DNA from: Schmidtea nova
Lineage: Eukaryota
Direction of reading: 5' to 3'
Assembly (NCBI GenBank): GCA_044892505.1
Contig: CM097883.1
Coordinates: 38,502,001-38,566,000 of the forward strand
Length of the DNA: 64,000 bases
A program made the position numbers and the translations under genes. Under the pieces are notes generated by a model, which saw only the letters and a program-made list of their open reading frames with translations, had not been told where the DNA came from and did no database searches. Positions 20,071-42,401 of the stretch are shown here, piece after piece. The stretch's first letter is position 1; each line of letters begins with the position of its first letter.

Positions 20071-20355
20071 CTTCTTCCACTGTGAAATCAGTGGAAGGAG
20101 ATGACTCTATTTATATATATGATTTATCTTTTATTGAGCTTCTTCCATCGTGTAAGCGGTGGAAGGAGGCAACAGTATCAGTTTATATTAACAACTAACA
20201 AGTATAATTTTAGAAGTAATTATTGGGTCGAGCTTCTTCCACTGTGAAATCAGTGGAAGGAGGCAAATATATATTATCTATATACCGTATTTATAGTATA
20301 AAATTACGTATGATTTAAGGGGCTCCGTTCACCGTGCAATCGGGAACATGGAGGC
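20071..20355 (+). repeat. Four dispersed hairpin repeats in the LTR (also 44946-45230)
   Basis: CTTCTTCCACTG-TGAAAT-CAGTGGAAGGAG at 20071 and 20233; variant at 20139; degenerate copy at 20323. Confidence 0.85.
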
Positions 20356-21084
20356 ATACTGTGCCGAGTAGAAACGACTGCTCCGTACAGTTAGGCCGTC
20401 CGACCGGTGTGAAGCGCCGAGACGAGGGTAGGAATTTTATTTTTGATTTCTAACCTTATTTTTCACTGGATAGTATAGCCAGTTGAAGTTTTATTTTATA
20501 ATCGATTTAAATTTTTTGAGTTTATAGTTAAGTTGAGTTTTGATTTTAGTTTGAGACAGATATAGCTGTGATTTTATTAATCTGATTTTATATTGGAATT
20601 CTCCGAATGTTAATCTATATTTTTTGATTGTCACATCTGGGGTTTGTGGGCATAGAGCGGCAGATACACGTTTAAGAATTTGTACAAAATATAATTTTAA
20701 TAACAACATAAAAATCGATAACTCTAATAACGTAGTGATCTACTACGCAAGTAACATAGCAGCAATAGGCTATAGGTTCAAACATTCCACATAAATAATT
20801 AAATATAATTGCTTATCCTGAACCCTGTACATAGGGCAGTGGATCTTAGTTTATTTTAATAATTTTCTTATCCTGACTGCTGTATATAGCACAGGCGTAA
20901 CTGAATAAAATGCATTATGAAATAAATGTATCTGATCGCTGTACATAGCGACAGTGTTGAAAGCGTAATAGGTAAATCATTTTCTTTTCCTAAATTAACA
21001 ATTACCAATTGTCAAAAGCATGAGAATCGTTCAGATCAAGACGGTCAATTTCATGTGAATAAACCAATTTTGAATTTTAGAAAA

Positions 21085-21675
21085 ATGTCAGCCAACACAG
21101 CAACCAATCAAGCCGAATTAGACAAAACATGGAGGATAATTCGCAGCCTCGAAAAGGAAATGCTGCGAAAATCAGAGAGAATAAAAGAAGCCGATGGCAT
21201 AATCTCCAACCTAAAGAAAAGCTGGTTCAGTCCAGAACAAATGAAAACACAAATTACAAAAACTCAACGCTCACAGCGAGCTAACAGCGAATTGCAAATG
21301 GAATTAGACGCGACGAAGATGGAATTAAAGAAATGCCTAAAATCTGTAACGGCATCGTATCTAACTCAGGAGCTCAGCCAGCTCATTCGACCAATCACTT
21401 ACCAGCATTGGGCTGACGAAAAGGCGGGATGTACAAAGGGAACAAACACCGAGGAACCATCTCAGGTTCAAGCAACAACAATAGCCAGTACACCAAATAA
21501 CTCGATAAATCCAGAAGTCAAGAAGAAAAGGAAGAGCAAGATGGGAGCACGTCAGCGTCGCTGGAAGAAACAAGTTCTTCAGCAATTGGCTCAACAATCC
21601 AAAGAAATTCCAGAAATTGATTTGACCATGAATTTTGCAATATCAGATGAAGACATTACTAAATACTTTGAATAG
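21085..21675 (+). CDS. LTR-encoded ORF (196 aa from ATG 21085; track ORF from 20926): coiled coil, basic KKKRKSKMGARQRRWKK motif, acidic tail
   Basis: Open frame kept in both LTRs; ATG 21085 preceded by TTTTGAATTTTAG|AAAA. Confidence 0.6.
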   Translation: MSANTATNQAELDKTWRIIRSLEKEMLRKSERIKEADGIISNLKKSWFSPEQMKTQITKTQRSQRANSELQMELDATKMELKKCLKSVTASYLTQELSQLIRPITYQHWADEKAGCTKGTNTEEPSQVQATTIASTPNNSINPEVKKKRKSKMGARQRRWKKQVLQQLAQQSKEIPEIDLTMNFAISDEDITKYFE

Positions 21676-22290
21676 GAATTTTGTGATTTAGCTGTTTTCG
21701 CGTATTAAATAATTTTTGTTTTGTATTTATTTTATTGTAAAGTATAGAAAATAATGTGATTTATTAAAAATTTTAAAATAATTTAAAGAAAAATATAGAT
21801 TAAATTAAACTATACATTAGAATCAACAATAGGATTAACCTAAATCTAATAAACAATAGAAACATTAAAGAGATAATATATTGTAATTGATTAAAGATTA
21901 CTTGTTGACATTGTAAAGAAGGGGGCTGAAAGAAAAGTTGAGAGTTGAAAGATATTGTAAAGAAAGGGGGCTAAAGAAACATTGAAATGAAAGATAATGG
22001 ATGCGGATAGATTAAAGTTAAAGCGTAAGTCCTTCTATCGGCAGCGAGACGAACCCGTGAACATAAATAGGGAGTAGTTTTAGCAATAGAGCTCACCTGC
22101 CCATCATTGTTCAAACACCTTGCACATTTCCAACTCGATTATTACAGGGAAATGATCGAGGGTGCTCGTGTGATATGTAAGCATTTTATGTGAGGTTTTG
22201 GATGGAGGAATCCCTAGAGCGTTTAAAAATAATTATTAGTTTAATTTACTGTTTTTGTTTTAACCCAATCCGAAACCAACAACATAAATT

Positions 22291-22308
22291 TGGGGGCTCA
22301 GCCGGGAT
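22291..22308 (+). promoter_or_regulatory. Primer-binding site, tRNA-Pro-like
   Basis: TGGGGGCTCAGCCGGGAT matches the MLV-type tRNA-Pro PBS TGGGGGCTCGTCCGGGAT at 16/18 positions; it lies 9 nt downstream of the LTR end. Confidence 0.85.
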
Positions 22309-22520
22309 CAAATTGGTTTTTGTGCGGAAAATTGAATCCAACAATAACAAGGAGTTTTAAAGTACCCCTCAGCCGGGATCAAATTGGTTTTTGTGCGGAA
22401 AATTGAATCCAACAATAACAAGGAGTTTTAAAGTACCCCTCAGCCGGGATGAAAATGGTTTTTTGTGCGAAAAATTGAATCCAATAATAACCAGGAGTTT
22501 TAAAGTGCCCCTCAACCGAA
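22297..22520 (+). repeat. Three 71-72-bp tandem units beginning with the distal 12 nt of the PBS
   Basis: CTCAGCCGGGAT at 22297, 22368 and 22439; degenerate CTCAACCG at 22511. Confidence 0.9.
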
Positions 22521-22821
22521 AATGTAATTGATTTTTGTATAAAAGTGAAAACAATATCAACAGAGAATTTTGAAAAACAATTATTGAATAAATATAACAA
22601 CAGACGATTAATAATTGATATTAAAATAAAATAAATAAACATAAATAAATATGTCGGGACGACAATTTGATGAAGCAGGGAGAGGTTTAACATCAGAAAA
22701 CGAAATGTACCACTACTTTTGACCGACACAAATCAAACAAATAGAGAAACAAGATATTGAAATTTTTATTTTTTATACCAAATAAAACAGCAAACATATT
22801 AACAATATCAATTATTTAGCA

Positions 22822-23283
22822 ATGAACGATAAATTAAAAGAAATAGAAGAATTCTTAAACACGGAAAACAAAACATACGAGGAATTATGCGAGAAAATAA
22901 GTCGAATAAGAGAATCCGGATTCACAGAACCCATGACACAAACCGAAGAGACAACAGAGCTGATAAAAATAATGGAAAGAGTAGACAAAATAGATATAAC
23001 AACTAGATACAAGTGGTACCGAACGAGATTAGAAAATGCTGATGTAAACATAAAATGTAGACAGTTAGAACAACAATTAACTCCAACATACAACAAGTGG
23101 ACGATACAAGGAACTGAGACAGCTAAGAAATTTAAACTGTGTTACATATGTCGAGAAAGGGAGAATAAAATCATGTTTTTACCATGTGGACATTTCCGGT
23201 TTTGTGGAATCTGTGCAGCCAATTGCGACAAATGCCCGATGTGCAATCTTGAAATAGGCGAAAGAATTACTGTGTATTTATAA
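22822..23283 (+). CDS. Accessory RING-finger protein with C-terminal IAP/MDM2-type C3HC4 RING (153 aa, no BIR)
   Basis: CYICRERENKIMFLPCGHFRFCGICAANCDKCPMC..I..RITVYL at the extreme C-terminus parallels the XIAP/cIAP RING. Confidence 0.85.
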   Translation: MNDKLKEIEEFLNTENKTYEELCEKISRIRESGFTEPMTQTEETTELIKIMERVDKIDITTRYKWYRTRLENADVNIKCRQLEQQLTPTYNKWTIQGTETAKKFKLCYICRERENKIMFLPCGHFRFCGICAANCDKCPMCNLEIGERITVYL

Positions 23284-23911: not shown

Positions 23912-24232
23912 AAGGGTCAAGGGCAAATAAGCCATATTAGTTACTCTGAAAGAAGGGTCAAGGGCAAATAAGCCATATTAGTTACTCTGAAAGAAGGGTC
24001 AAGGGCCAACGAGCCGTATTAGTTAATTACTCTGAAAGAAGGGTCAAGGGCCAACGAGCCGTATTAGTTAATTACTCTGAAAGAAGGGTCAAGGGCCAAC
24101 GAGCCGTATTAGTTAATTACTCTGAAAGAAGGGTCAAGGGCCAACGAGCCGTATTAGTCAATTACTCTGAAAGAAGGGTCAAGGGCCAACGAGCCATATT
24201 AGTTAGTTACTCTGAAAGAAGGGTCAATGGCA
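23912..24232 (+). repeat. Tandem array, 2x41 bp plus 5x45 bp plus a partial unit, core AAGGGTCAAGGGC
   Basis: Unit starts at 23912, 23953, 23994, 24039, 24084, 24129, 24174, 24219. Confidence 0.92.
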
Positions 24233-24380
24233 ACATAAGAATTTGAACCTATGATTGCAATAGCGATAGCAACACAAGGAATGTGAACCTGTGATTGCGA
24301 TTATGGATAGCAACATAAGGAATGTGAACCTATGATTGCGATAGTTGATAGCAACGTAAGGAATATGAACCTAGAGTTGT
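24232..24380 (+). repeat. About 40-bp degenerate tandem repeat (GAATGTGAACCTATGATTGC..GATAGCAAC) x3-4
   Basis: Repeated GAAT(G/A/T)TGAACCT motif directly after the previous array. Confidence 0.75.
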
Positions 24381-24487
24381 AGTCGTCGACGACGTGAGAA
24401 TAGTGAGCATTAGAGTTTGAGTAATAAAAGTAAAGATGATTAAATAAACTAGAGATTCAGTATGCATACAAGTAGAAATAAGAATAG

Positions 24488-24720
24488 GAGAAATTAGAGT
24501 TGACCGGAAAAACCGGTAGAAATAGTGAAAATAATGAATAATGATGAGAAATTAGAGATGACTGGAAAAATTGATGGAAATAGTGAAAAAAATGAATAAT
24601 GATGAGAAATTAGAGATGACTGGAAAAATTGATAGAAATAGTGAGAATAATGAATAATGATGAGAAATTAGAGATGACTGGAAAATTTGATAGGAATAGT
24701 GAGAATAGTGAGTAATGATG
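24488..24720 (+). repeat. 58-bp tandem repeat x4
   Basis: GAGAAATTAGAG at 24488, 24546, 24604, 24662. Confidence 0.85.
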
Positions 24721-25152
24721 ATATAATGAATAGTGATAAAATGATAATTGAGTCAGGAGAACTCAAGGGAATTAAAGCGTTTGAGCGACAAATTAAATTG
24801 GGAGACTGAGGGAAAAGTAATGAATTTATTTGATAACGATAGATAATTATTACGACCATATAGATAATTGTTACCAGTGAATAGATAATTTAAATAGACT
24901 TAAATAAAGGGGAAACCGGGAATGGGGAAACAATGGAAACCCAATAATGAGGAATAAAAGCGCAACGATAACAATGATGTATCGTTGAAGTGACTTTTTA
25001 ATTTAGATATACGGAACAGAACAAGTCAAACAACCAACCAATCAATCAGAATACGATAACAGAGAAACAGAAAAATTGATAAATTAAAGAAAAGTAAACC
25101 GAGATCAAGAGCAGTTAAAAATCAAGAAGTTAATAATTCACAAAGAAATAAA

Positions 25153-28100
25153 TTGAGATCAAGAGCAGTTAGTGCTACAATCGAAAAAGTTGATAATTCA
25201 CAGAGAAATAAATCGAAACAAAGAGCAACCAGTGCTACAAAGAAAACAAATCCTAAAGGAAGTAAATCAAGAAGAGTAATAGTAGAAAAGTCAAAAGTCG
25301 AAAACAGTAAATTTTCTAAAACTAACGAAAGTGAAACAGAAGAAAGTGCAAGTGAAACCTACGATAATTATAATAATACGGAAGCATCAGATAACGAGTC
25401 AATAAACACAGAAGAAGTAGAAGCAGAAATTGATAATAATTCAAACGAAACGAATAACGAGCATACTAGTGAAACAAGAGGAAACGAGAGTAAAACGACA
25501 CAAGACAGCGGAATCGAAATGAACGAACATAAAGAGGAAATTAAAGATAAATTTACTGGAGAACCATTCAATGGAGATGCCAGCAAGTTAGAAACGTTTT
25601 TAAAAGAATTTGGTATATTTGTAGAAATGTGTAAATGGAAACCAGAAACGATAAGAAGCAGAATTCAGTTATATTTAAAAGACAGTGCGTTAGACTTATA
25701 TTTAGAAGCTAAAAATTCAGATGATCAACTTGATAGTTGGGAAAAGATAAAGAATTTTTTCCAGCAAACGTTTGGAATAAATAAAGTATTAAATGAAGCG
25801 TTTACAGAATTTTCAATGAGGAAACAAAAAGTTAATGAATCAAATGCAGCATATGCAAGTGAATTAAAGAAATTGGCTAAATTGGCATTTAATCAAAATA
25901 GTCCAATGAGTCCAGAATTAATGGCAGCAATTTTTGTGGGGGGATTGAGAAGACCCGATATAAGAGCACAAGTTGGATGCCAAGGTTGTAAAACAATAGA
26001 TGAAGCGTTGGAAATTGCTAACAGATTCGAATTACATATGATCGGAAGTGAAGGAAGAATTTACCTAGCAATGGATACGACACAAAACGAACAAGCAATA
26101 AAGATAAATAACCATATTCCGAACTCACAGCAATTAAATCGACCACCACCTCAAAGGAGAAATGAGGGAAATAAAATACAAAATTACGGAAACCAAAATA
26201 ATTATAGTACGCAAGGACAAACAAAGCAATGTCAAACCTGTGGAAAGTTAGGACATTGGCAACAAGAATGTTTCGCGAATTTAAATTGTAAAAAGTGTGG
26301 AAGAAAAGGACATGCAGAAAATAGATGTTACCAAAGATCATGTTATAACTGTGGACAATCAGGTCATATGGCGATGAACTGCCAACAACAAAACAACCAA
26401 CAAAGGAATTGGTCGAACAACGGAAATCGACAAAATTATACGAATCAACAGAGTAACGGAAACCGTCAGAATTTTGAAAATCAACAGAGTAATTATAACC
26501 AGAACAAAAGTACCACCAAAGAGATACATTTATTACAAGAAGTTCAGAGATTGACAGAGTTAATAAACAATACACCGAGAGGAAATCAACAAACGAATCA
26601 ACAACAAATGAATATGATGAGAAAAGTGGAAAGTGAAAATGAACGACTAAACCGAGAAAGTCAAGCACGACATGCTCAAGAATGGGCAAGAATACAAAGA
26701 GAAGACGAACAGAAACGACAAGAAAGAGAACGACAACCATTGAGAATTAATATGATGAGAGCAGCGAATCAAACAAGAGATAACAAGGAAGATATTGAAC
26801 CAGAAACAAATCAGATAAAACCAAATTTAGTAGATGAAGAAAACCAAAAAGAAATAATACAAGAAAACGAAGAAGTTATTAAACAAAAAAGGATGTTGGT
26901 AGTCATGCCAAACGATCATGTATTTCAATTTGAATATGATGAAAAAGAGGAAGTGGGAGTGTTAATTAATAAAGTAAACAAGACGATTCCGGGAACGACG
27001 AAACTACCCCGAGAAGCAATTTTACAGACGGAAGACGATGCAGCAATAAAATTGAAACCAACCGACATATGGAAAGATTTAGGAGTACCAAGGAATAAAA
27101 TGAAAGTCACAGTTATCCAAGAAATAGAAGAAAATAACGATGAAGAGAAATCAAAACCAGTAACAAAAGTCAAAAGTAGAGCATTGAAGATATTTGAAGA
27201 GAGAATCAAACAGAGAAAAGCAATGGAGATAGAAAAACGAAGAGGCCAAATAGAAGAATCAGAAAACAGTGACAAAAAAGAAGAGATACCACCAAAAAAT
27301 GTACCAGATAAAGTAGAACAGACAGCACATATAAATATGTTAAGAAACTTAACTAGAGAATTTTCAGATGTAGAAAGTGACAGTGATGTCAGTAGTTTAG
27401 CAGGGGATATGCTAAAAGAACCAGAAAAGGAAGACAACAAGATAGAAGTAGCGAAGATGCCAGAAAATGTACAAATAAAAGAAGATGAAATTCAGAAACT
27501 ATTAGATAATGCGTTAGAAGTGATTTATAACGAAGAATTTATTGATAAGAAGCGATATCGAAAATTTATAAGAGCAGTATTCCGAACGAACTATAAAGAA
27601 CGATTACAAAGTCGTGAAATAGAGATACTATCAGGATACGTCGTCAAACTATTAGATGAACCACTCCACGAATATATAATTTTAATAGAAATAAACGAAT
27701 GTTCACCAAGAATTTGGATCAAATCTCCATGCACGAACGAAATTTATCGATGGGTAGAAGACAGACTAGGAAGTTCGTATAAAAACAAATTTATATATTC
27801 AGGAAACGAACTTGTAAGACGAGCAACGCATTTGGTAGAAACAGGCATATGGCCAGGAGAGATAACAACATTATCAATATGCGACAATAAGAAAGAGGAA
27901 AATTTACAAGAAATCGCAAAGGAAGCAAATATGTGTTTTGAGATGAGAATTAAACCTCAGTTAGTAGAAAGGAAAGAAAGAATTCTTAGAGAAAATTTAA
28001 ATTCACTAATAGAACAAATTATTCAACAAATCGACAAGAATAGAGAAGAGTTAACAAAAACTGAATATGAGAAATTAAAACAATGCATCGAAAATATACG

Positions 28101-31100
28101 AGATACCAGCCATACGAGACATTCGTCATACAAGACTTGGAAAGTGATCGCGAAAATGGGAAAAGCGATGTTTAAACGAGGAGAAATAGGAGATTTGAAA
28201 ATCAAAGTGAAATTACCAAACGAGGACACAAAAGAAATTGAAGTAATCGCGGATTGCACAATAGAAGAATTAGTTGATGTTATCAATGAGACTTTATTAC
28301 AACGGGAAAAAGAAGACGAATTAGAAGACGATATCATCATAAAATATAATGAACACGTACTAGGGGATCATGATGAGAGACGATTATATAAAATCGGTAT
28401 ATGGGATAATTACCAAACAATTCACGTTATCAGAATGGATGATACGTCAAGAGAAACACCAAAAGACGAAAAAAGGAGACAAGAACGTCGAAGAGAAGTG
28501 ATGTACAAACTAAGACAAATAATAGAAATTTATCGAAGATGGCAGATACAGCCAGAAGGGGAAAATGTATTAGGAGAATTAAACTTCAACGAACGCCGAT
28601 TAACACCAGTAGAGAAACACTGGGATGTTAAAGAGAAATGCTGGAAAGCAAAAGGAGGTATATATGAAGAAGAATTTAGACCAGAAATGGAAGATAAATA
28701 TGAACCAGAAATCAGAAGAGTTTGTATGGTGACAAGAAAAGTCATGCCAACAGATTTGGATGGACCAGAAACCGCAGCAATATGGTTAGAAACGCAAAGA
28801 CGAAAAGCTGACGAACTTATTGAATTACTAAGAGGAAATGTACAAGGTAAAAGGCGAACGATCAAAGGATTAGCCGAATTCTTTGTAGCAGGCGGCGAAG
28901 ATATAATTAGTTTACGAAAAGTAGCAAAGGCAGTAACAGAATATAAACGAGTTAACGAGTGGTGCCCAGAACAATTAGACAATGTAATCAAGAAATGGAG
29001 AAACCAGGAAAACTCCCAAGAACCACCACAGAAAATACATTTAAGGATAATATATCCAGATCGAGAAAAAGAAGAACTTTGGGTAAGATTAACTGAAAAG
29101 ATTCGGGATGTTAAAAAGAGATTAAAATATGAACCACCATTTCATCTACAACATCAAGGACGATCACTAGAAAACGATATGGAAATTTGGATAACGCCAG
29201 CACAGTTAGAACTGGCAAATACGCTAACAGTAGACGCAATAGCAGGTCAACCATTAAAACTTAAAGAGAAAAGAGTAAGAGAAAGTGAAGATACTCAGAA
29301 TCTAAAGAAAACGATGCAGATAACGCCAGGAACAAGCGCAAGGCAGTACGAAACAACATCAATTAAAATCCAAGAGAGAACTCGACCACAACCATACGAT
29401 ACAGAAGAAATCCTAACAGACAGTGATGACATGCTAGAAGAATTAGCAAAATTGACAAAAGAAAAAGGCAATAATATTTTCGAAAGAGTACAAGAGTTAC
29501 CCACAACGTCACAAGCAATCAATACCCAAGATGAAGTTGAGCAAGAAATAGAAATAGAAGAAGTGAACGAAATCTCTGAAGAAGAAGCAAGAGGAGCAAA
29601 TACAGAAAACGAACGATTTACACAAGAAATGGAAAAATGGTGGGAACAGAGAAATAATGAACCAAGAGATGTTACAGAAGAAACTGGACGAGAAACCAGA
29701 TTAATTGAAACAGGTACAACAATGGATAGACGACCTAGAGGTAGACCAAAGACAGATCCAGCCAACGTAATCAACAAAACAAAAGAAGAAAGGAGACAAG
29801 AGAAATGGGAATTATGTTTAAAGAAACTCAACAAAATAGCAGAAGCAAAAGACCAGGAAATAACGCAAAAATGTCAAGGCGAAGGATGGATATCAAAAAC
29901 ACTAATGGAAATACTGGCGATAATTGATCCAGAATTGAAAAAATGGTGGAGAATAAACGAAATAAGCGACAAGGCTAAAGCATTACATAGCGCAATCGCA
30001 CCAATCTTACCCGAACTGATAAAAGAGAAGACAAAATCAAGCCATTTAGATTGGCAAGGGACCACAACGTTGATAAAGAGGTTAACTGAAGATGCAGAAA
30101 ACGATAATAAATATGTGATAGCAATTGCGTATACAATTTATAACTTATTAACATTGAGTAGAGGTAATCCAAAATCTATGGCAATAGAGAAACATATCAA
30201 AAATACGGCAAGCATCATAGCAAAAGAAATAGAACCATACGTCATCAGTAAAGGAGGATGGGAAACATTTGTTAAAACGAATCAAAGAAACAGTCAAGCA
30301 AAGAATATGAAAAAGAAATTTGAAGAAATTTTAGGAGAATTAGAAAAAGAAAAGTCAGGAACAGGAAGTGGAAAATCTTCACTAAACCTGAATTCAATCA
30401 TAATGATGATATTAATATGGCTAATTAGCGTTGAAGGAGCAACGGCGTTCGAAGTATTTGATTGCGACCAGATGGCATTAGGAGAAAAATATTCATTAAG
30501 AGGAACCGAACAATGCAAAGATGCAACTCCAACAGAATTAAAAGTATTACATAAAGAACAAATATACCACATATATCAGGAAGCCGACTTAATAAAGACA
30601 ACAGTTAATGAATGTAAAATATATAAAACAAGATTTGCTTTTTATTGTGGACATCGCCACTACTCTGCAATCGTAATGCCAGGAACGGAAAGAGAAGCGA
30701 TAATGTTACAAGGAGAAGATTGCAATAAATTGTTCAAACATGGAGAAGTCGAAACAAGAGATCGAATAAAGATAAGAGGAAAAGCTGGAGTAATACTACA
30801 ACAAACATATTATGTAGCAGGAGCTATCACAGGAGGAGAAGGTTACTGTCAAGGAGCAACATACCCAATATTTGGAGTACCAGCAACTAACATGGTAGTA
30901 ATCGACACATATACGGTAGAATTAAAAGCGTATGAAGCATATTTTGACCCAGCAACAGGAGAAATGAAGACGTTATCAATGTGCAAAATTGAAGCCAGTA
31001 CTTGTCAAACCGGTATGTCAACTTTAACATACAGAGCAAAAGCAAATGAATGCCAATTACAATTATTAAAGGAAGCAGAGTTCGACGAGGTACAAGGAAA

Positions 31101-34100
31101 AATCTTTCAGGAAGAAGATGATGATGAAGTAGCAAGAGGAAAACGTCTACAGGAGACAGTAAAAGGAGAGAAACCGTTCACAACTAAAGTACAAGAAAAA
31201 GAGGTGAGGATGAGAGAGACGCCAACAGTATTGGTTACATCAAACGCAAATATAGGAATGAGGTTTGTAAAAGGAAAACCGGCATTAAAATGTGGTGTTT
31301 CTATGTTAGAAACAAATTATCCAGGTATTTATGTATCAAGACAAGCAGCACCAAATGCAAAACCCAAGATAGACACTACAGACATCAAATTGCACGTATA
31401 TTTAAATAACAAATTGGATTTTTTATTTCATAAAGGTCAAGCATCAATGGAGAAAATATACTACGATCTCATTAACAACGATTGTATATTGAACAGAGAA
31501 ATATTAAAGACGAAATTAGCGGTAGCAATCACAAACCCGGATAGTGCTATGCCATTATTACCACTTAACGAAGGTCATTTTGGAAGAGTAGTTGGAGAAG
31601 TTATGTATGTATATATATGCCAAAAGACACAAGCAAACCTAGCAACAACGACCAGAATACGACAAGGACAATGTACCAACGAATTAGAAATTGAATATAA
31701 AGGGAAAATAAGATATGTACAACCAGTGACAAGAATCATTAACCCAGTTAGTTTTGAACCAAACCCTTTCAATTGCAGTAATGCATACGGACCATTATAT
31801 CAGAAACCAGACGGGAATTGGGTCATGTTTCCGTCAAGATCAGAAGTACAACCACCTAGAGAATTTGAATTGATGCAACTTTCAAAAGGACGAAAATTTT
31901 CCAATATAGATGTAATTAACGGAGGAATTTACAGTGCAAAAGATCTTGAAGCAGCACGACAAAATATATTATTTCCAGCTAGAAGAGAAGCAGTATTATC
32001 TAGCATTGTAACGATAACAGGAGGAACAAGTTATCAAGGAGGACCAAATTATGAATTATTACTGTCACCAGCACACTTTAGGAAAGCAACAGAGAATATG
32101 ATGAAAGCAATGTGGGGACGATTTTTAATTTTCGGACAAATGATGGCCGGAATATTAGGTGTAATTTTAATCATACAAATAATACGAGTGATAATCACAC
32201 AAATGCTAGCATGTTTCGATATTTATAAAAGAGAAAAGAAAGTTAATTGGAAATTAATAGCAGGATTTTTACCATTTTTAGCAAAAACGATGGTGTTACA
32301 TGGTCACTCCAAAGATATTCATAGAATAAAAAGATTATTAAAAATACTGGCAAAAATGAAAGGAACAGATGAAGACGTGGGAAGAAAATTCAAAAAGATA
32401 ATGACAGATGAACAAGCGAGATTACAATTAAAAAGCGAAAGAAAAGGATTATGGGAAAGAATAAGAGGAGATAAAACTCAAGATGATTCCAGTGATGACG
32501 ATGATAACAATGACGACTGTGAAGGAGGGCAAAGGTATAGAAACCAAGCACCGCAATATAGCGACAAGAATCCAACAGAAGCATGGAAATGTCACGCACC
32601 TCCACCAACAATGTACCAAGAACCATTACAGGTATCAGGACACAGAGCAATGCAAATGATGCCAATGACAACTTTATATCCAATTATACCAGAAGATTAT
32701 AAACTTAGACGATGTAGAAGTATGGATCCGCAAGACGATTCACTCACAATTGCAGTCATGTCATCAAATACAGGACCAGTATTAACTACAACCATAGAAA
32801 TAAATGGAAAAGAAATAGAAGCGATGATAGATACAGGAGCAAACATTTCGGCGATAGATATCAAATGGATACCGCAAGAACAAAGACAAGAAATTGAAAG
32901 AACAAATGTTCATGTAATAGCATGTAGTAAAGAGATTGTTGAAGTTGCAGGAAGATGGTGGGTGAAAATACGACACCAAAATATAGAAATCGAAACGTAT
33001 GTAGCCGTAATACCAGCTTTAAGCGTACCATGTATAATCGGAACAGATTTAATGCCAACACTACTTAAAGAAATAATCATCGATCTTGGAACAATGAGAT
33101 TAAAAGACAGAACAGGGAAAATATGTGCTATGGAAGCAAAAGTAATAAGCTCAAAACAAATGATAATACCAGCCAGAAAAGAGAAAATATGTTATGTCAA
33201 AATAGACCCTACAATAGAAGGAGACATGGTTTTCGAGCCAAGTAAGAGATTCGAGAAAAGGAAATCATTGCAAATGGCAAGAGGCTTAGTTAATATAAAC
33301 AACAACGGAGAAATCCCAGTAAATGTAATAAATTTTGATGAAGAAGATAAGATAATTTATGAAAACGAAAGATTAGGCAAACTAACTCCTATGATAGACA
33401 TCGAAATACCAACAAAAAGGGGAGAAAAAGCGGAAGAACCAATATGGAATATTGACAGTAAATTGTTAAATGAGGATCAAAAGAACCAATTAGAGAAACT
33501 TCTAACAGAATATAAAGATATATTCGCAGCATCTGATTTAGACCTAGGAACATGCGATGTTACAGTACACACGATACCACTATTAGACGAAACACCGATA
33601 GCATTGAGACCCTACAAATTGGCAGAAGCACAGAAAGCCGTAGCAGAGGCAGAAGTGCAGAAAATGTTAGACGCAGAAGTTATTGAACCCAGTTGTTCAC
33701 CGTGGCAATTTCCAGTGGTAATGGTGAAGAAGAAAGATGGAACGCAAAGATTTTGTATCGATTATAGAAGATTAAATGCAGTAACGAAACGAGATACATA
33801 CCCATTACCAGACATTAACGAGATGTTGTTGACATTACAAGGAGCAGCCTATTTCACATCATTAGATTTAAAAAGCGGTTACTGGCAAATAAAAGTAAAG
33901 GAGGAAGATAAGGAGAAAACTGCTTTTACTATTGGAAGAGACTTATATCAGTTCAGGAAAATGCCATTCGGATTAACCAATGCACCAGCATCATTTCAGC
34001 GATGTATGAATTTTGTGACGCATGGAATAAAACAGTGCATGGTTTACATTGATGACCTATTAATTTATTCAAGCACATTCGAACAACATATACAAGATAT

Positions 34101-37100
34101 GAGAGACGTATTCGTTAGACTCAGAGAATGGAAATTAAAACTAAAACCATCAAAATGCGATTGGGCAAAAGAAAAAGTAACTTTCTTAGGACACATAGTG
34201 TCGGCACAAGGGAAAGAACCCGATCCCAGAAATATTGAAAAGGTTAAAGAATGTCCAGCACCAAAAACGATAACACAAATACAAGAATTCCTTGGTTTAT
34301 GTGGATATTACAGGAAATTTATAAAGGATTATGCAGGAATTGCAAAACCCATGCAAGAATTAGTAAAGAAAGATGTAACGTTTATATGGGGACAAGAACA
34401 ACAAACAGCGTTTAAAACGCTAAGAGATAAATTGATAACCGCACCAATATTAGTTCATCCAGACTTCAAGAAACCATTTTTACTAGCAACAGACGCAAGT
34501 GGATACGCTGCAGGAGCAGTACTAGGACAATATGATGATGAAGGGAAAGAAAGAGTAATCGGATATTACAGTAGAACGTTTAAAAAGCATGAGAAGAATT
34601 ATTCAGTAACAGAAAGAGAAGCATTAGCAATAATATTGGCTATAAAACACTTCAAATATTTATTATGGGGACATGTAATATGTATAACTACAGACCATCA
34701 ACCGCTTGTATGGTTAGGACAGCATAAAGAAACATCCAGTAGACTAATGAGATGGGCAATGCAACTGCAAGAGTACTCACCAGATATAAAATTTAAATCA
34801 GGAAGAGCAAATTCAAACGCAGACTGTATGTCAAGATTAACTTTCCCAGAATTAATAGACCCAGAGGTACAAAGAATATGCGTATTGATAGCGGAAGATT
34901 TAGATTTCAGCGAATTAAAGAAGGACCAACAAGAAGACAAAGAATTAGGACTAATAATAGAATTTATGAAATCACGGAATTTAGACGTATTCAAAGATAA
35001 TGAGGAATTAACAGAACATGTGAAAAAATATCAGCATCGGTATATAATAGAGAAAGGATGGCTGTTAATACAAGATGGAGAAAAGAGGTTAATGTGCTTA
35101 CCAGAAAATAGACGAAAGGAAATAATAACGCAATATCACGATGGAAAACTCGGAGGACATATGTCAAGCCAGAAAACAATCAATCGTATGAGACAGAAAT
35201 ACCATTGGCCGACAATGGAAGAAGATGTTAAAGAATGGATAAAAAACTGTCTAACATGTGCAACTAGAAAAGATAGCGGTAAGAAATGGAAAAATCCTCT
35301 AAAACCTATGCCAATACCAGCAGAACCAATGACAACCATCGCGATGGATGTAATAGGACCGTTACCAGAAAGCTTGAACGGAAACCAATACATACTAGTA
35401 ATAACAGATTATTTAACGAAATTTCCAGAAGCATTCGCAATGGAAGACCAAAAAGCAAAAACAGTAGCAAAAATCTTGGTAGAAGAGATATGTTGTCGAT
35501 ACGGAACGCCTAAACAAATATTGACAGACCAAGGAACGAATTTCATGAGCGAAGTATTCGACGAAGTAACAAATTATTTTAGAATAGCGAAATTAAGAAC
35601 GTCACCCTATCACCCACAAACTAATGGACAAACAGAACGATTTAACGGCACATTGATTAGAATGCTATCGAATTACGTATGTAAACATCAGACTGATTGG
35701 GATGAGTATATAAAACTATGTCTAATGGCTTATAGAATGTCGATACATGCAGCCACAAAATTAAGCCCATTCAAACTAATGTATGGAAGAGAATGTAACA
35801 TACCTATTGATTTAGAATACCAACCACCATTGTCTCAATACATGGAAGAAGACGACTATGTTACCAAGTTCAAAGAGAGAATGCAGGAAATATGGAAGAC
35901 AGCGGAACTAAATATAAAATTTTACCAAGAAAGTTATAAAGATTTGCACGACCAAAAGAAAAACGTGAAGACAAACGATTTAAAACCAGGAGACTGGGTA
36001 ATGATTGAAACCCCAGAAATAATACCAGGAACAGTAAAGAAATTACAAAGACCGGGAAAAGGCCCGTATGAAGTGATATACAGAAACGAAGATAATGTCA
36101 AAGTAAAACTTGTAAATCGACCATTAGTACGACCAATATACGTGAATACATGTAGATGCAAGAAAGTGCCAAAAACAATAACAATGATACCGGAAGAGAG
36201 AATCATGACGAGATCACAAACCATCAGAATAAATATGCTCAGAGCGGAAGAAATTAACACAACTAGTCAAGTAGACAGTGAGAAAATAGATGTTGACAAA
36301 GAGATCGTACGAAAAGCCAAAGAAATAAACGAAAGATGGGAAATCAGACAAGAAAAAGACGTATTATGGGATATACGACAAATAATCAGTGATTACGCAC
36401 GAGGATGCCCAACCAAACCAATTATAATAGAATTACTAAAGAAAATACCAGAGATACTCGTATTACAAGATACAGGAGGTGCAACTGCACTACACAATGC
36501 CATAAGTTGGGGTAAAACGGAAAAGGTAAAAGAATTCTTGAAAATAGCAAAAGAAACGAATCAAAATCTAGACATTGTAAATCGAGAATTAGAAACGCCA
36601 ATGATGACAGCAACCCTAAGCTTAGCAGATAAAGAAATAGTAGATATGCTGATTAACGCAGAATTCAACTGGACAGCTCGAGATAGAAGAGGAAACACAG
36701 TTTTAAACCATGCAATAATGAGTGAAAATCAAATGATACTAAAACATATAACAACCAACCTCACATGGGAAATCGAAGAATTAATCAAAGGAGAAATTAT
36801 GAAAGAAGCGATTCGGAAGGGAAACACTAAAACAATATGGAAACTAATACAATGGAAATGGCCGAATAATAAAACATGGGTATTAGATATAAACAAAGAA
36901 TTTAGCGAAGGACAGAATGCACTATTGAGATACTTGTTAGAGTTTACGTGCGATCAGAGAACGATGTTAGCACTAATAAATAGAGGAAAAATAAATATTA
37001 GTAAAAACGAAGAGGAATATAAACTAGAAGTTGAAAAGAAAGCTTTATTCAGGAAAATTTGGGTATGGTGTCAAAAACAAATACGCAAAGACATAAGCTA

Positions 37101-40100
37101 CAAAAATATAAATGATTTCCAAGAAAAGTATAAGATAATAATAAAGGAATACAAGAAGCTAGTGGAGATATTAAACGATCCAGAAAAATTTAATCAAGCG
37201 ATAAATCAGAAAGAAGAAGAAAGTAAAAGGATACTCACACCATTGTTCAACGCGAAGATAGATTACCAAGAAAGATTGGATGCAATACACCAAAAAGCAA
37301 AGGAACTATTACCAGAATTCAAAAATACTAAATACGCCTTGGAAATACTTGGCGCGATAGTAGAGAAAGTACACGCGTACGCGAAAGGAATATATAATGG
37401 AAACGATATAATAATTATAAAAAGAGAAATGCCAGTTGCGTTCTTATTAACTAAAGAAAGAATAATGCCGATTCATAGAGCATTGAGAGCAGGAAAAGAC
37501 GGTAAAGTAATCGAAATCGCAAGAGTAATGCATCAATGTGGATGTGATATGAATATGATAGACGAAAAAGGAGACACCCTCATGGTATACGCAGCAAGAG
37601 CAAAAACAAAAGTCAAAGTATTAGAAGAATTATATAAAGCAGGCGCAGGATTAATCGGAAAAACTGTCAAAGACAACTCAATATTAGACGTGACATTATT
37701 AGGTCCAAACTGGGAAATGTTGAATTTCATTAAAACGATAACAAACCAGGAAGAGATAGACTATTTAACAGAAACCGTAAAAGGACCAAGCGTATTGACA
37801 ATGATGCAAAACATCAAATTGACAGAAGAAGTATTAAACTGGAAAATACCAAATACAAACAAACCAGCATTTAAAGTTAACAAGTTTATGGAGAATAATC
37901 GAAATTGGTGTATCCAAAGCGCACTAATAACTTATATATGGCCCGAAATTGTAGAAATTTTCATGAGAAGAGAAGATCTGAGATTTACAAACAAGCCCAA
38001 AGAAACGGAAAAGATGGTCAAATGGAAAGAATTGATGAAAACACACCTTCAAAGTTGGATAAAAGCCAAGAAAGAAATTATACAGTATCAATTAGACAAC
38101 AAAAAGATACCCGAAGATATAGAATTCCAAGAATTTGAAGCAAGTAACTTAACATCATTATATTATGCAAAACTAATAGAAACCAGTAATGTCGAGGACG
38201 ACATTTTTAACGAGCCAGGGAGAGATAATAATACTGACAATGATGATGACGATGAAGAAAACAATGACGACGAGAGAAATAAAGACGATGATGATGATGA
38301 AAACAGTCACGGAAATCCAGATAACCACGAACAAACCAATAAAGAAGACGAGAACCAAGAGAGAAATACAAAGAAACAAGAATCCAAAGAACCAAGAGAA
38401 GACAACCCTAAAAATAATCATGAAAAGAAAGGAACAAGTTACAGAAGGAATCCATTATTCAGACCAGAAGTATTAATGTTCGCAATAATCATAACACTTA
38501 TGGGACAATGTGAAGCAACGAAACAAGAGATATCAGTAGAAATGGAAGTACCAATACAAAAAGCATCAACACAGATAATGAATTCAAAGGATATTGAACA
38601 AGTATGTTGGGTCAAAGAGAACGAAATTCTCGGAGATAACAACCTATTACGATGTATAATACCAAACCCCGAGCGAAAAACTATAATAATAGACGAAATG
38701 GACATGGAAACATGGTACAGAATATGTACTATCAGAAAACCCAAGGACGAAAAATCACACAAAACAGTTACATGCCAAGTATACAAGACACCCAAAGTTC
38801 GATATGAGTTCGCCAATGGAATAGACCTTCCAGGACCATTTTATTTTAAAATAACAAGAGAACCAGCATCAAGAAAAGTCTTACAACAACTAAGAACCAA
38901 GATAACAACACCAAGTATAAGGAATACAACGGATAAACCAGAACCAAAAAGACGAACGAAACAAACCACAAGAGTAATCTATAATTCCAAGTTGTTATGT
39001 ATAGCACTTATTATGACAATACTGAAGCGATTGGAAGAAGGGATAGAAATGGATACAATGACATTAATAGACATGGAAGAGACACGAATGACAAATCAAA
39101 AATGTTGGGTTAGAAACGATGAAAAATTAGAATTAAAGGAATCAAGAGAAATTCAAAAATTGGAAGCGAGTAAAACGAACAAAGTAATCAAGATAATAAA
39201 GATAAAAACAGACAGAATTCATAAACTATGTTTATTGGAAAAAGAGAGAAACAAGAAAGGAATAACCAATTGTAAAACATTCCAAGCAGGGAAAATAATA
39301 ACGTTTGCAAGAAAAATGGGGAAAAGAAACAAACAAAATTTCCAGAAATTAACCATAACGTTAGAAATAACGGGAATAGAACAAAATGTAAACGGAGTAT
39401 GCTGGAGAAAATACGAGAAAGAAACGAATAAACATAAATCATCACAATGTCAAACAATCAGAGGAACAACTGCAGTGCAAATAAAAAGCTTAGAAAGAAA
39501 TCAAACGTATGAAATATGCCTAGTAAAGGAAAATGATCAAATAACGAAAGAAGATTTAGAATGCAGAATATACAAAGCACCGAACAGAGTAAAAACCATT
39601 AAAGCAATACGAAAGAATAAAAGACAACAAAAACCGAAGCATACCACTACCGAAAGTCAAACAGAACCAGAGAGGAAAACCTCAGCAACACTTATACTTT
39701 GGAAACTAGATGACAAAACAGTAGAAATATGTTGGACAATGATCAAGAAATATGAAGAAAGACAACCACAACAATGCGAAAAGATGAACAAAGAAGAGGA
39801 GATCAGAATTCAGAACCTACAATTGGACAAACAATACGAAATATGCGCAATAGAAAAGGCAGATAAATTTGGAAACCAGCAAGAGAAATGTGGAAACTAC
39901 TATACACCGACAAATACAACGATCAAAGGAAGAATCAAGAAACTAACTTTCGGAGAATTGAATCAAACAACGAAACAAATGGAAAACGAGGAAACAATAA
40001 TAGATTCTTATGCACAATGGAAACCAGAAAAAGTAATCCAGGAAGTCAAAAGGAAACAACAAGAACGACAACAATTGGAACTCAAATTGAAAGGACAATA

Positions 40101-40407
40101 TGGACCAATGATCAACCAAAGCAAATTCACCCAAATTAATATTAACAAGCAAAGAAGAGAACTAATTGGAGTAGGAATACTGGCAGTATGCGTACCAGTA
40201 ATAATAATACTATCAATAATATGGTTATGGGACATAATAAAAAAGAAACCAACCAGACAATGGCCAGATATAAAGATTATGAATTGTAAAATCAAGATAC
40301 CAGAAGAAGTGAAAAAAGAATTCCAAAGAAGAACCAAAGGCAAAGAATTTTGGAAGCGAATAGAAGACGAGGAGCGACACGATGAAAAAGCAGTGATGAT
40401 AGTATAG
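25153..40407 (+). CDS. Giant gag-accessory-env-pol-accessory polyprotein, 5,084 aa uninterrupted (track start is TTG; first ATG 25519)
   Basis: A 15.2-kb stop-free frame containing all domains listed below. Confidence 0.95.
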   Translation: MRSRAVSATIEKVDNSQRNKSKQRATSATKKTNPKGSKSRRVIVEKSKVENSKFSKTNESETEESASETYDNYNNTEASDNESINTEEVEAEIDNNSNETNNEHTSETRGNESKTTQDSGIEMNEHKEEIKDKFTGEPFNGDASKLETFLKEFGIFVEMCKWKPETIRSRIQLYLKDSALDLYLEAKNSDDQLDSWEKIKNFFQQTFGINKVLNEAFTEFSMRKQKVNESNAAYASELKKLAKLAFNQNSPMSPELMAAIFVGGLRRPDIRAQVGCQGCKTIDEALEIANRFELHMIGSEGRIYLAMDTTQNEQAIKINNHIPNSQQLNRPPPQRRNEGNKIQNYGNQNNYSTQGQTKQCQTCGKLGHWQQECFANLNCKKCGRKGHAENRCYQRSCYNCGQSGHMAMNCQQQNNQQRNWSNNGNRQNYTNQQSNGNRQNFENQQSNYNQNKSTTKEIHLLQEVQRLTELINNTPRGNQQTNQQQMNMMRKVESENERLNRESQARHAQEWARIQREDEQKRQERERQPLRINMMRAANQTRDNKEDIEPETNQIKPNLVDEENQKEIIQENEEVIKQKRMLVVMPNDHVFQFEYDEKEEVGVLINKVNKTIPGTTKLPREAILQTEDDAAIKLKPTDIWKDLGVPRNKMKVTVIQEIEENNDEEKSKPVTKVKSRALKIFEERIKQRKAMEIEKRRGQIEESENSDKKEEIPPKNVPDKVEQTAHINMLRNLTREFSDVESDSDVSSLAGDMLKEPEKEDNKIEVAKMPENVQIKEDEIQKLLDNALEVIYNEEFIDKKRYRKFIRAVFRTNYKERLQSREIEILSGYVVKLLDEPLHEYIILIEINECSPRIWIKSPCTNEIYRWVEDRLGSSYKNKFIYSGNELVRRATHLVETGIWPGEITTLSICDNKKEENLQEIAKEANMCFEMRIKPQLVERKERILRENLNSLIEQIIQQIDKNREELTKTEYEKLKQCIENIRDTSHTRHSSYKTWKVIAKMGKAMFKRGEIGDLKIKVKLPNEDTKEIEVIADCTIEELVDVINETLLQREKEDELEDDIIIKYNEHVLGDHDERRLYKIGIWDNYQTIHVIRMDDTSRETPKDEKRRQERRREVMYKLRQIIEIYRRWQIQPEGENVLGELNFNERRLTPVEKHWDVKEKCWKAKGGIYEEEFRPEMEDKYEPEIRRVCMVTRKVMPTDLDGPETAAIWLETQRRKADELIELLRGNVQGKRRTIKGLAEFFVAGGEDIISLRKVAKAVTEYKRVNEWCPEQLDNVIKKWRNQENSQEPPQKIHLRIIYPDREKEELWVRLTEKIRDVKKRLKYEPPFHLQHQGRSLENDMEIWITPAQLELANTLTVDAIAGQPLKLKEKRVRESEDTQNLKKTMQITPGTSARQYETTSIKIQERTRPQPYDTEEILTDSDDMLEELAKLTKEKGNNIFERVQELPTTSQAINTQDEVEQEIEIEEVNEISEEEARGANTENERFTQEMEKWWEQRNNEPRDVTEETGRETRLIETGTTMDRRPRGRPKTDPANVINKTKEERRQEKWELCLKKLNKIAEAKDQEITQKCQGEGWISKTLMEILAIIDPELKKWWRINEISDKAKALHSAIAPILPELIKEKTKSSHLDWQGTTTLIKRLTEDAENDNKYVIAIAYTIYNLLTLSRGNPKSMAIEKHIKNTASIIAKEIEPYVISKGGWETFVKTNQRNSQAKNMKKKFEEILGELEKEKSGTGSGKSSLNLNSIIMMILIWLISVEGATAFEVFDCDQMALGEKYSLRGTEQCKDATPTELKVLHKEQIYHIYQEADLIKTTVNECKIYKTRFAFYCGHRHYSAIVMPGTEREAIMLQGEDCNKLFKHGEVETRDRIKIRGKAGVILQQTYYVAGAITGGEGYCQGATYPIFGVPATNMVVIDTYTVELKAYEAYFDPATGEMKTLSMCKIEASTCQTGMSTLTYRAKANECQLQLLKEAEFDEVQGKIFQEEDDDEVARGKRLQETVKGEKPFTTKVQEKEVRMRETPTVLVTSNANIGMRFVKGKPALKCGVSMLETNYPGIYVSRQAAPNAKPKIDTTDIKLHVYLNNKLDFLFHKGQASMEKIYYDLINNDCILNREILKTKLAVAITNPDSAMPLLPLNEGHFGRVVGEVMYVYICQKTQANLATTTRIRQGQCTNELEIEYKGKIRYVQPVTRIINPVSFEPNPFNCSNAYGPLYQKPDGNWVMFPSRSEVQPPREFELMQLSKGRKFSNIDVINGGIYSAKDLEAARQNILFPARREAVLSSIVTITGGTSYQGGPNYELLLSPAHFRKATENMMKAMWGRFLIFGQMMAGILGVILIIQIIRVIITQMLACFDIYKREKKVNWKLIAGFLPFLAKTMVLHGHSKDIHRIKRLLKILAKMKGTDEDVGRKFKKIMTDEQARLQLKSERKGLWERIRGDKTQDDSSDDDDNNDDCEGGQRYRNQAPQYSDKNPTEAWKCHAPPPTMYQEPLQVSGHRAMQMMPMTTLYPIIPEDYKLRRCRSMDPQDDSLTIAVMSSNTGPVLTTTIEINGKEIEAMIDTGANISAIDIKWIPQEQRQEIERTNVHVIACSKEIVEVAGRWWVKIRHQNIEIETYVAVIPALSVPCIIGTDLMPTLLKEIIIDLGTMRLKDRTGKICAMEAKVISSKQMIIPARKEKICYVKIDPTIEGDMVFEPSKRFEKRKSLQMARGLVNINNNGEIPVNVINFDEEDKIIYENERLGKLTPMIDIEIPTKRGEKAEEPIWNIDSKLLNEDQKNQLEKLLTEYKDIFAASDLDLGTCDVTVHTIPLLDETPIALRPYKLAEAQKAVAEAEVQKMLDAEVIEPSCSPWQFPVVMVKKKDGTQRFCIDYRRLNAVTKRDTYPLPDINEMLLTLQGAAYFTSLDLKSGYWQIKVKEEDKEKTAFTIGRDLYQFRKMPFGLTNAPASFQRCMNFVTHGIKQCMVYIDDLLIYSSTFEQHIQDMRDVFVRLREWKLKLKPSKCDWAKEKVTFLGHIVSAQGKEPDPRNIEKVKECPAPKTITQIQEFLGLCGYYRKFIKDYAGIAKPMQELVKKDVTFIWGQEQQTAFKTLRDKLITAPILVHPDFKKPFLLATDASGYAAGAVLGQYDDEGKERVIGYYSRTFKKHEKNYSVTEREALAIILAIKHFKYLLWGHVICITTDHQPLVWLGQHKETSSRLMRWAMQLQEYSPDIKFKSGRANSNADCMSRLTFPELIDPEVQRICVLIAEDLDFSELKKDQQEDKELGLIIEFMKSRNLDVFKDNEELTEHVKKYQHRYIIEKGWLLIQDGEKRLMCLPENRRKEIITQYHDGKLGGHMSSQKTINRMRQKYHWPTMEEDVKEWIKNCLTCATRKDSGKKWKNPLKPMPIPAEPMTTIAMDVIGPLPESLNGNQYILVITDYLTKFPEAFAMEDQKAKTVAKILVEEICCRYGTPKQILTDQGTNFMSEVFDEVTNYFRIAKLRTSPYHPQTNGQTERFNGTLIRMLSNYVCKHQTDWDEYIKLCLMAYRMSIHAATKLSPFKLMYGRECNIPIDLEYQPPLSQYMEEDDYVTKFKERMQEIWKTAELNIKFYQESYKDLHDQKKNVKTNDLKPGDWVMIETPEIIPGTVKKLQRPGKGPYEVIYRNEDNVKVKLVNRPLVRPIYVNTCRCKKVPKTITMIPEERIMTRSQTIRINMLRAEEINTTSQVDSEKIDVDKEIVRKAKEINERWEIRQEKDVLWDIRQIISDYARGCPTKPIIIELLKKIPEILVLQDTGGATALHNAISWGKTEKVKEFLKIAKETNQNLDIVNRELETPMMTATLSLADKEIVDMLINAEFNWTARDRRGNTVLNHAIMSENQMILKHITTNLTWEIEELIKGEIMKEAIRKGNTKTIWKLIQWKWPNNKTWVLDINKEFSEGQNALLRYLLEFTCDQRTMLALINRGKINISKNEEEYKLEVEKKALFRKIWVWCQKQIRKDISYKNINDFQEKYKIIIKEYKKLVEILNDPEKFNQAINQKEEESKRILTPLFNAKIDYQERLDAIHQKAKELLPEFKNTKYALEILGAIVEKVHAYAKGIYNGNDIIIIKREMPVAFLLTKERIMPIHRALRAGKDGKVIEIARVMHQCGCDMNMIDEKGDTLMVYAARAKTKVKVLEELYKAGAGLIGKTVKDNSILDVTLLGPNWEMLNFIKTITNQEEIDYLTETVKGPSVLTMMQNIKLTEEVLNWKIPNTNKPAFKVNKFMENNRNWCIQSALITYIWPEIVEIFMRREDLRFTNKPKETEKMVKWKELMKTHLQSWIKAKKEIIQYQLDNKKIPEDIEFQEFEASNLTSLYYAKLIETSNVEDDIFNEPGRDNNTDNDDDDEENNDDERNKDDDDDENSHGNPDNHEQTNKEDENQERNTKKQESKEPREDNPKNNHEKKGTSYRRNPLFRPEVLMFAIIITLMGQCEATKQEISVEMEVPIQKASTQIMNSKDIEQVCWVKENEILGDNNLLRCIIPNPERKTIIIDEMDMETWYRICTIRKPKDEKSHKTVTCQVYKTPKVRYEFANGIDLPGPFYFKITREPASRKVLQQLRTKITTPSIRNTTDKPEPKRRTKQTTRVIYNSKLLCIALIMTILKRLEEGIEMDTMTLIDMEETRMTNQKCWVRNDEKLELKESREIQKLEASKTNKVIKIIKIKTDRIHKLCLLEKERNKKGITNCKTFQAGKIITFARKMGKRNKQNFQKLTITLEITGIEQNVNGVCWRKYEKETNKHKSSQCQTIRGTTAVQIKSLERNQTYEICLVKENDQITKEDLECRIYKAPNRVKTIKAIRKNKRQQKPKHTTTESQTEPERKTSATLILWKLDDKTVEICWTMIKKYEERQPQQCEKMNKEEEIRIQNLQLDKQYEICAIEKADKFGNQQEKCGNYYTPTNTTIKGRIKKLTFGELNQTTKQMENEETIIDSYAQWKPEKVIQEVKRKQQERQQLELKLKGQYGPMINQSKFTQININKQRRELIGVGILAVCVPVIIILSIIWLWDIIKKKPTRQWPDIKIMNCKIKIPEEVKKEFQRRTKGKEFWKRIEDEERHDEKAVMIV
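25552..26382 (+). other. Gag: capsid domain plus three CCHC zinc knuckles (26230-26382)
   Basis: F.G....L..FL..F / MHR-like QKVNESNAAYASELKKLA / FVGGL; knuckles CQTCGKLGHWQQEC, CKKCGRKGHAENRC, CYNCGQSGHMAMNC. Confidence 0.93.
26887..29241 (+). other. Three to four ubiquitin-like domains (26887-27120, 27670-27885 weaker, 28192-28434, 29032-29241)
   Basis: e.g. LKIKVKLPNEDTKEIEVIADCTIEELVDVI..IIIKYNEHVL..RLYKIGIWDNYQTIHVIR follows the ubiquitin beta-grasp pattern. None ends in di-Gly. Confidence 0.6.
29728..29751 (+). other. AT-hook motif (RRPRGRPK)
   Basis: Canonical PRGRP core flanked by basic residues. Confidence 0.6.
29788..30279 (+). other. Bcl-2-like helical domain
   Basis: IEPYVISKGGWETFVK closely parallels BH2 of Bcl-xL (LEPWIQENGGWDTFVE), preceded by a ~150-aa helical region. 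BH1 (NWGR) is not recognisable. Confidence 0.65.
30388..32304 (+). other. Env-like fusion glycoprotein, chuvirus/Monjiviricetes G-like (class III-like): signal 30388-30447, ectodomain from 30448, TM 32110-32217
   Basis: IIMMILIWLISVEGATA/FEVFDC, FYCGHRHYS, GEVMYVYICQ, CTNELEI..YVQPVTRII, GGIYSAKDLEAARQNILFP and MWGRFLIFG..AGILGVILII follow the motif and cysteine order I recognise from chuviral glycoproteins. Confidence 0.8.
32779..33060 (+). other. Aspartic protease
   Basis: IEAMIDTGANISAI (D at 32830) and CIIGTDL. Confidence 0.93.
33646..34836 (+). other. Reverse transcriptase (YIDD 34045-34056) and RNase H (34477-34836)
   Basis: RFCIDYRRLN, LDLKSGYWQI, MPFGLTNAPASFQR, YIDD; RNase H TDASG, EREALA, TDHQPL, NADCMSR. 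Confidence 0.97.
35089..36170 (+). other. Integrase (HHCC, DDE, GPY)
   Basis: H..GGH..CLTC; D35347, D35527, E35635 (D-35-E spacing); GPYEV at 36061. Confidence 0.96.
36463..37698 (+). other. Two clusters of ankyrin repeats (36463-36750 and 37459-37698)
   Basis: DTGGATALHNAISWGK, RDRRGNTVLNHAI, MPIHRALRAGK, IDEKGDTLMVYAA..VLEELYKAGA. Confidence 0.85.
38470..40230 (+). other. C-terminal type-I membrane module: signal-like peptide 38470-38517, four Cys-containing FN3-like repeats, TM 40162-40230
   Basis: VLMFAIIITLMGQCEA; repeats CW..C..I..L...Y.IC...C (about 38593, 39094, 39388, 39721); LIGVGILAVCVPVIIILSIIWLW followed by a basic tail. Confidence 0.65.
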
Positions 40408-40865: not shown

Positions 40866-40961
40866 TCAAATTGTAGCGGAAAATTGTATATATGTAAAAA
40901 TAAAACTCTAGAAAAATCAAAAACAAAGAACAAATCAATGTATGTATATATTATTGTAGAA

Positions 40962-42296: not shown

Positions 42297-42401
42297 CAAG
42301 AGAAAATGATCGTGTAAATAAACTGTACAAAACAATATAAAATGATAAATAAACAAAAATAATAAAAGTAGTTTGATTGAAAATATTTGTAATTATAGAA
42401 A

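Follow-up and report, generated by a model that had tools for sequence, protein, structure and literature searches.

Elements of the Burro type are described in the Burro section of PMC6431247 (2019) with Gag, a ubiquitin-like domain (Ubl), BCL2 and an in-frame env ahead of protease, reverse transcriptase (RT), RNase H, integrase, ankyrin and MATH/TRAF domains. The relevant passages of PMC13524379 (2026) report GAG-ENV-POL errantiviruses with HSV/gB-type ENV in Platyhelminthes, Nematoda and Bryozoa, many-copy Schmidtea elements included. PIWI knock-down raises BURRO1 RNA, according to the portion of PMC8532177 concerned with it, and Burro1 is reported, in work cited by PMC13465017, to aid planarian stem cells, so that whether such elements move from cell to cell matters to the stem-cell field. 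Here we describe a long terminal repeat (LTR) element of 27.7 kb in Schmidtea nova, located in a stretch of 64,000 nt (the window; contig CM097883.1, positions 38,502,001 to 38,566,000) in which the annotated parts of the element lie on the forward strand. It is a Burro-type giant Ty3/gypsy retroelement, with env at 30388-32304, preceded by gag and a Bcl-2-like domain and followed by the protease, and its in-frame gag-env-pol layout is real, well supported and already published. Our reading, to which we give a probability of roughly 0.7, is that this env is the in-frame class III-fold glycoprotein of the element, likely released by signal peptidase and used by enveloped particles for entry. 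The literature examined offered no data on Burro env with regard to infectivity, processing or fusion, and the window gives predictions for the cut site, the topology and a Bcl-2 tail anchor.

The likeness to Burro-1 to -4 and GYPSM1, as presented in the Burro section of PMC6431247, includes one open reading frame (ORF) of about 5,000 aa (published about 4,900-5,100) with env between a BCL2-like domain and protease, multi-kb LTRs, ankyrin and MATH/TRAF cargo, and an env that matches arthropod and fish mononegavirus glycoproteins. In contrast, the published elements are >30 kb, TRAF is here a downstream accessory ORF and BIR was not detected; the env labelled gypsy-Env-like in that section has here a predicted gB-type class III fold. 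Signal-peptidase processing, a second membrane protein and deletion derivatives are not mentioned in the section. The elements covered in the passages of PMC13524379 share with the window the gene order, the gB-type fold, conserved cysteines, signal and transmembrane (TM) flanks and a furin site that is not always kept, whereas polyprotein processing, Bcl-2/ankyrin cargo and pol-less and env-less derivatives are not treated there. More generally, the literature searched, whose coverage leaves out key papers, gave no account of deletion derivatives or of polyprotein processing.

The env lies within a frame (25060-40407; first Met at 25519) that runs for 5,115 codons without a stop and encodes, in order, gag, a probable Ubl, the Bcl-2-like domain, a signal-like stretch, the env ectodomain, a TM helix, protease, RT, RNase H, integrase, ankyrins and a second predicted membrane protein. 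A prior sequence-only reading had claimed a signal peptide, a Cys-rich ectodomain and a TM ahead of a DTG protease in one frame, and this is confirmed: the signal-like stretch, an ectodomain that spans about 560 aa and has 14 Cys, and the TM are 5' of a DTGA protease. The claimed position between gag and protease also holds, but it is the Bcl-2-like domain, not gag, that directly precedes env. Env matches PF24664 (Monjiviricetes_fusion) at E 1.2e-73, and the score of 248.6 bits, where the cut-off is 27, shows that this is not due to chance. An AlphaFold model (pLDDT 88) matches chuvirus G in BFVD and herpesvirus gB in PDB, with a gB-like ectodomain fold and a long central helix. The proposal of a chuvirus-type, class III-like fusogen is thereby borne out at the level of family and predicted fold, the latter being of the class III (herpes gB/chuvirus G) type. 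The ectodomain (30448-32121) has one N-glycosylation sequon.

A genome search for env, in which 69 of 3,781 candidates were scored, separated subfamily A (45 matches at 91-100% identity, the window copy included) from subfamily B (24 matches at 85% identity), and env is free of internal stops in 62 of the 69. We fetched the other 44 subfamily A copies and 12 of the 24 subfamily B copies; the region from env start through protease is stop-free in 45 of these 56, and 10 of the 12 unfetched subfamily B copies have full-length frames. Retention of the cysteines and TM among copies, set beforehand as a refuting test of the fusogen proposal, was found: the 14 Cys and the TM are kept. Two further families in the genome, with smaller frames of 3,393-3,401 codons, are about 36% identical and agree in domain order and in the four main hydrophobic segments; they have four CCHC knuckles, a Bcl-2-env-pol order and a downstream ORF of 469-483 codons, and the copy scanned gave no ankyrin match. 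PF24664 followed by an in-frame protease domain was found in both of these families and in 9 of 11 public polyproteins scanned. Six related public polyproteins have two to four aspartic-protease domains after env.

The predicted internal signal sequence of env (30385-30447) was called solely from hydropathy and alignment. It corresponds to a hydrophobic stretch at aa 1779-1797 (nt 30394-30450; Kyte-Doolittle (KD) 1.97), and a hydrophobic stretch with small residues precedes the x-x-[AV][YF]DC start in 15/15 listed sequences. The signal peptide of the sequence-only reading therefore stands as a hydrophobic stretch, with the correction that it appears internal to the polyprotein: in 2 of 15 homologues there is no upstream Met within 40 residues of the mature env start. 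After a predicted cleavage on its C-terminal side, it would likely stay attached to the Bcl-2-like domain and anchor it in the membrane. Downstream of the ectodomain, the interval 32140-32298 holds the TM helix (32140-32196; aa 2361-2379, KD 2.57) and a second, weaker and conserved hydrophobic segment (32242-32298; KD 1.28) that is probably cytosolic and amphipathic.

The order signal-ectodomain-TM-cytosolic enzymes-signal-ectodomain-TM suggests a polyprotein that is threaded through the endoplasmic reticulum (ER) and cut by signal peptidase, by analogy with flavivirus-type polyproteins, which are processed in this manner. Guided by the internal signal, the ectodomain would pass into the ER lumen. 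Cleavage by signal peptidase directly ahead of the conserved start would leave the Bcl-2-like domain with the hydrophobic stretch as its tail anchor, tying Gag to the membrane as well; cellular Bcl-2 proteins carry a tail anchor at the corresponding place. The TM helix would then bring the chain back to the cytosol, with Pol attached to the Env tail until released by the element's protease. In this way a single membrane would gather Gag, Env and Pol, with no need for frameshifting or for an env RNA made by splicing; the three would come from every full-length RNA at 1:1:1, and particles would bud carrying Env and then enter other host cells. The equimolar Gag, Env and Pol proposed from the sequence would accordingly apply per full-length RNA but not to the family, and has to be limited in this way because RT, RNase H and integrase are missing from 37 of 44 sampled subfamily A copies.

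It is improbable, in our estimation, that splicing sets the ratios, with env either translated from a dedicated subgenomic message or left out so that Gag-Pol results, read-through of the open frame being no more than tolerated. The accessory ORFs do look spliced, having acceptor-like sites 1-3 nt ahead of four ATGs, and a crude pattern scan placed another such site at 30334, with two Met codons following at the env start (30403-30408); however, the acceptor-like sites ahead of env and of protease are lost in subfamily B, two homologues lack an upstream Met as noted above, and the deletion classes described below, lacking GT-AG ends, are unlike copies of spliced RNA.

Several points weigh against our reading of env as a processed entry protein. 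The signal and TM calls are drawn from hydropathy and alignment, and were the second hydrophobic segment also to span the bilayer, the topology would fail, because the protease would then come to lie in the lumen. The TM-scores of the predicted model against gB are modest (0.33-0.41 in most rows). A furin-like RGKR is present in 43/43 subfamily A copies, but subfamily B has RGKI at this place and other families have no such site; furin priming is not supported, since the motif is not kept outside subfamily A. Five env-less copies exist, so env is not needed in cis. Some of these points would suit a protein that retains the fold but is not an entry fusogen, acting as a membrane scaffold that joins Gag and Pol, or in cell-cell contact or receptor blocking. 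In its favor, the five env-less copies, two of them gag-protease-RT, were themselves copied; the TM and tail region (97% identity between subfamilies, dN/dS 0.013) is under stronger constraint than the ectodomain; and the ectodomain has a single sequon and no conserved furin site. On the other hand, the 14/14 ectodomain Cys and the whole predicted fold are kept across element families at 31-40% identity, ectodomain dN/dS is 0.076, and Env could be supplied in trans to env-less copies. We consider such a non-fusogenic role unlikely, if slightly less so than ratio-setting by splicing.

Sequence comparison points to a clear kinship between env and chuvirus G, and the closest named stand-alone relatives are the G proteins of Wufeng shrew chuvirus 2 (E 2e-37) and Tacheng tick virus 4. 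These share PF24664, the 14-Cys pattern and a predicted class III fold with env, although they are encoded by stand-alone genes and are about 20-28% identical to it; herpesvirus gB, likewise a stand-alone gene, has the class III fold that is predicted for env at 9-15% identity. Such relationships would fit direct acquisition of env by a Burro ancestor, the donor being a chuvirus or another negative-strand RNA virus related to it, as proposed for the mosquito BEL/Pao element Anakin, which is also an LTR element with a chuvirus-related glycoprotein. According to the passages on Anakin in PMC7642597, however, that element has a Pao backbone and a glycoprotein grouped with chuvirus-derived sequences, whereas the window has Ty3/gypsy-type domains and a separate env clade. 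We examined this in an unrooted tree of 118 rows (112 of 115 alignment rows and 6 env parts; quick IQ-TREE, LG+G4), in which a branch with SH-aLRT 99 separates the 18 polyprotein envs from the only two named chuviruses included, 98 of the 118 rows falling outside any labelled group. The polyprotein envs form their own clade on a long branch and are not nested beside the named chuviruses, with which identity is 20-25%; the remaining stand-alone matches are insect-genome proteins; and the passages of PMC13524379 place gB-type env across ancient phyla and argue for great age in retroelements and against recent capture. The capture from a negative-strand RNA virus put forward in the sequence-only reading thus stays a proposal, and direct acquisition by a Burro ancestor seems to us doubtful, since transfer from retroelement to virus, or a shared ancient source, fits equally well.

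The RT-RNase H-integrase block (33171-36191) is missing in frame from most sampled subfamily A copies. Of the 44 fetched, 37 jump in frame from after the protease to after the integrase, 5 retain the block and 2 end before the junction, while none of the 12 fetched subfamily B copies has the deletion. The pol-less copies keep gag, env and protease, with about 4,100 open codons in many of them. Exact junction patterns were counted 28 times in the deleted and 4 times in the undeleted form, the sensitivity being unequal between the two patterns. In long contigs of four runs, all from one study and perhaps from the source sample, env was covered at a depth of 184-255 and pol at 50-81; since depth does not equate to copy number, the higher env depth lends weak support to pol-less copies being common. 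The LTR pairs of eight pol-less copies are 99.8-100% identical, and 7/7 checkable copies have their own 4-bp target-site duplication, from which it follows that they are recent, separate insertions. Pol-less copies are still being copied, which would have to occur in trans.

A second block, comprising Ubl, the Bcl-2-like domain and env (27300-32684), is missing in frame from the five env-less copies; two of these run on into RT and three lack pol also. Both deletion junctions sit in short shared repeats and their ends are not GT-AG, which would favor template switching over splicing as their origin. Both deletions excise whole modules, in frame, between putative protease sites marked by a recurring motif. 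Naturally occurring copies without pol, without env or without both form a series of in-frame module losses that bears on how protein ratios are set in one-frame Gag-Env-Pol elements.

The account of the pol-less copies that we somewhat favor is that they are plain parasites, shorter RNAs out-replicating their helper, with the frame still open through youth or through a need to be translated for RNA stability or packaging, and not through any use made of the Gag and Env that they encode. The pol-less copies share one junction, which is bounded by microhomology and hints at descent from a single founder; subfamily B thrives without such copies; and plants have gag-only non-autonomous elements. 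These TR-GAG elements, as characterized in the passages of PMC8704663, similarly retain their structural genes but not RT or integrase and are transposed in trans, and they have been discussed as a possible source of Gag; they differ in having a single gag ORF, whereas the pol-less copies here have about 4,100 codons with env, protease and host-like cargo. Simple parasitism accords less well with both deletion classes being in frame and removing whole modules between putative protease sites, or with the env dN/dS of 0.06-0.09 between the window copy and two pol-less copies, which is based on few changes. If pol-less copies are expressed, family-wide output may be Gag- and Env-rich. We tentatively raise one joint reading, less probable than simple parasitism, of a multipartite retrovirus-like family: abundant pol-less copies would give extra Gag, Env and protease in trans, because a frameshift-free Gag-Env-Pol cannot itself yield surplus structural protein, the env signal would double as the Bcl-2-like tail anchor that tethers Gag, and Pol would be recruited on the Env tail. 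If this is true, pol-less copies would play, population-wide, the part that in retroviruses falls to frameshifting and env splicing.

Gag (25519-26394) comprises a capsid and three CCHC knuckles (PF00098, E 3e-8), and Retrotrans_gag was matched in a sister family. The probable ubiquitin/SUMO-like domain (28192-28434) has a weak match that is below the cut-off (PF21403, E 0.077); Ubl is among the domains in the Burro section of PMC6431247. The Bcl-2-like domain (29812-30294) ends in a GGW (BH2-like) motif, and a four-row profile searched against PDB matched Bcl-xL (E 2e-4); that of the sister family matched PF00452 below the cut-off (E 0.0017). The aspartic protease (32788-33060; PF00077, E 1.5e-8) has its DTGA at 32830, and Pfam matches delimit RT (33724-34200; YIDD at 34045), RNase H (34387-34776) and integrase (35101-35616). 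The first ankyrin-repeat cluster (36442-36729; PF12796, E 1e-13) is 3' of the integrase. At the C-terminal end of the polyprotein, hydropathy predicts the second membrane protein (38455-40221), with a signal-like stretch, Cys-containing repeats and a TM (40165-40221); its layout is matched in the sister families, it has a weak match to DUF7062 (E 0.011), and it has no sequence match in PDB. The Ty3/gypsy-type Pfam matches are PF17917, PF17919 and PF17921. No BEL/Pao backbone was identified, there being no match at E 0.1 in the Pfam scan to the families that we take to mark Pao. Of the dUTPase-like and BIR domains known from Burro/GYPSM1 elements, neither was matched in the element at E 0.1, in a Pfam scan made without profile-profile search.

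The 5' LTR (19463-22281) and the 3' LTR (44338-47156) are 2,819 nt each and have two mismatches between them; the 5' LTR starts with TG and finishes with CA, and the 4-bp target-site duplication is TTAG. The two LTR differences together with this duplication indicate a recent insertion. Each LTR contains a 249-codon open frame (20926-21675 and 45801-46550) with a weak Pfam match only, which is probably spurious. Directly after the 5' LTR, at 22290-22510, is a primer-binding-site-like motif, resembling the tRNA-Pro type, that is partly repeated in three 71-nt repeats, and tandem repeats of 45 nt and 58 nt occupy 23933-24777 in the leader ahead of gag. Accessory ORFs encode a RING finger (22786-23283; PF13920, E 2e-11), with an acceptor-like site directly ahead of its ATG, a TRAF protein with zinc fingers and MATH (40866-42296; PF22486, E 1e-20; PF02176, E 8e-7), and a 368-codon product (42399-43505) that is without Pfam match and of equal length in most copies; a short ORF of about 110 codons starts at 40532. 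The acceptor-like sites at four accessory ATGs, T-rich TAGs at 22822, 40531, 40962 and 42402, suggest spliced subgenomic RNAs. Outside the element, a 744-codon open frame without Pfam match (50956-53190) lies in a GC-richer patch (GC about 45%), and arrays of 29-nt tandem units are found at 60702-61641.

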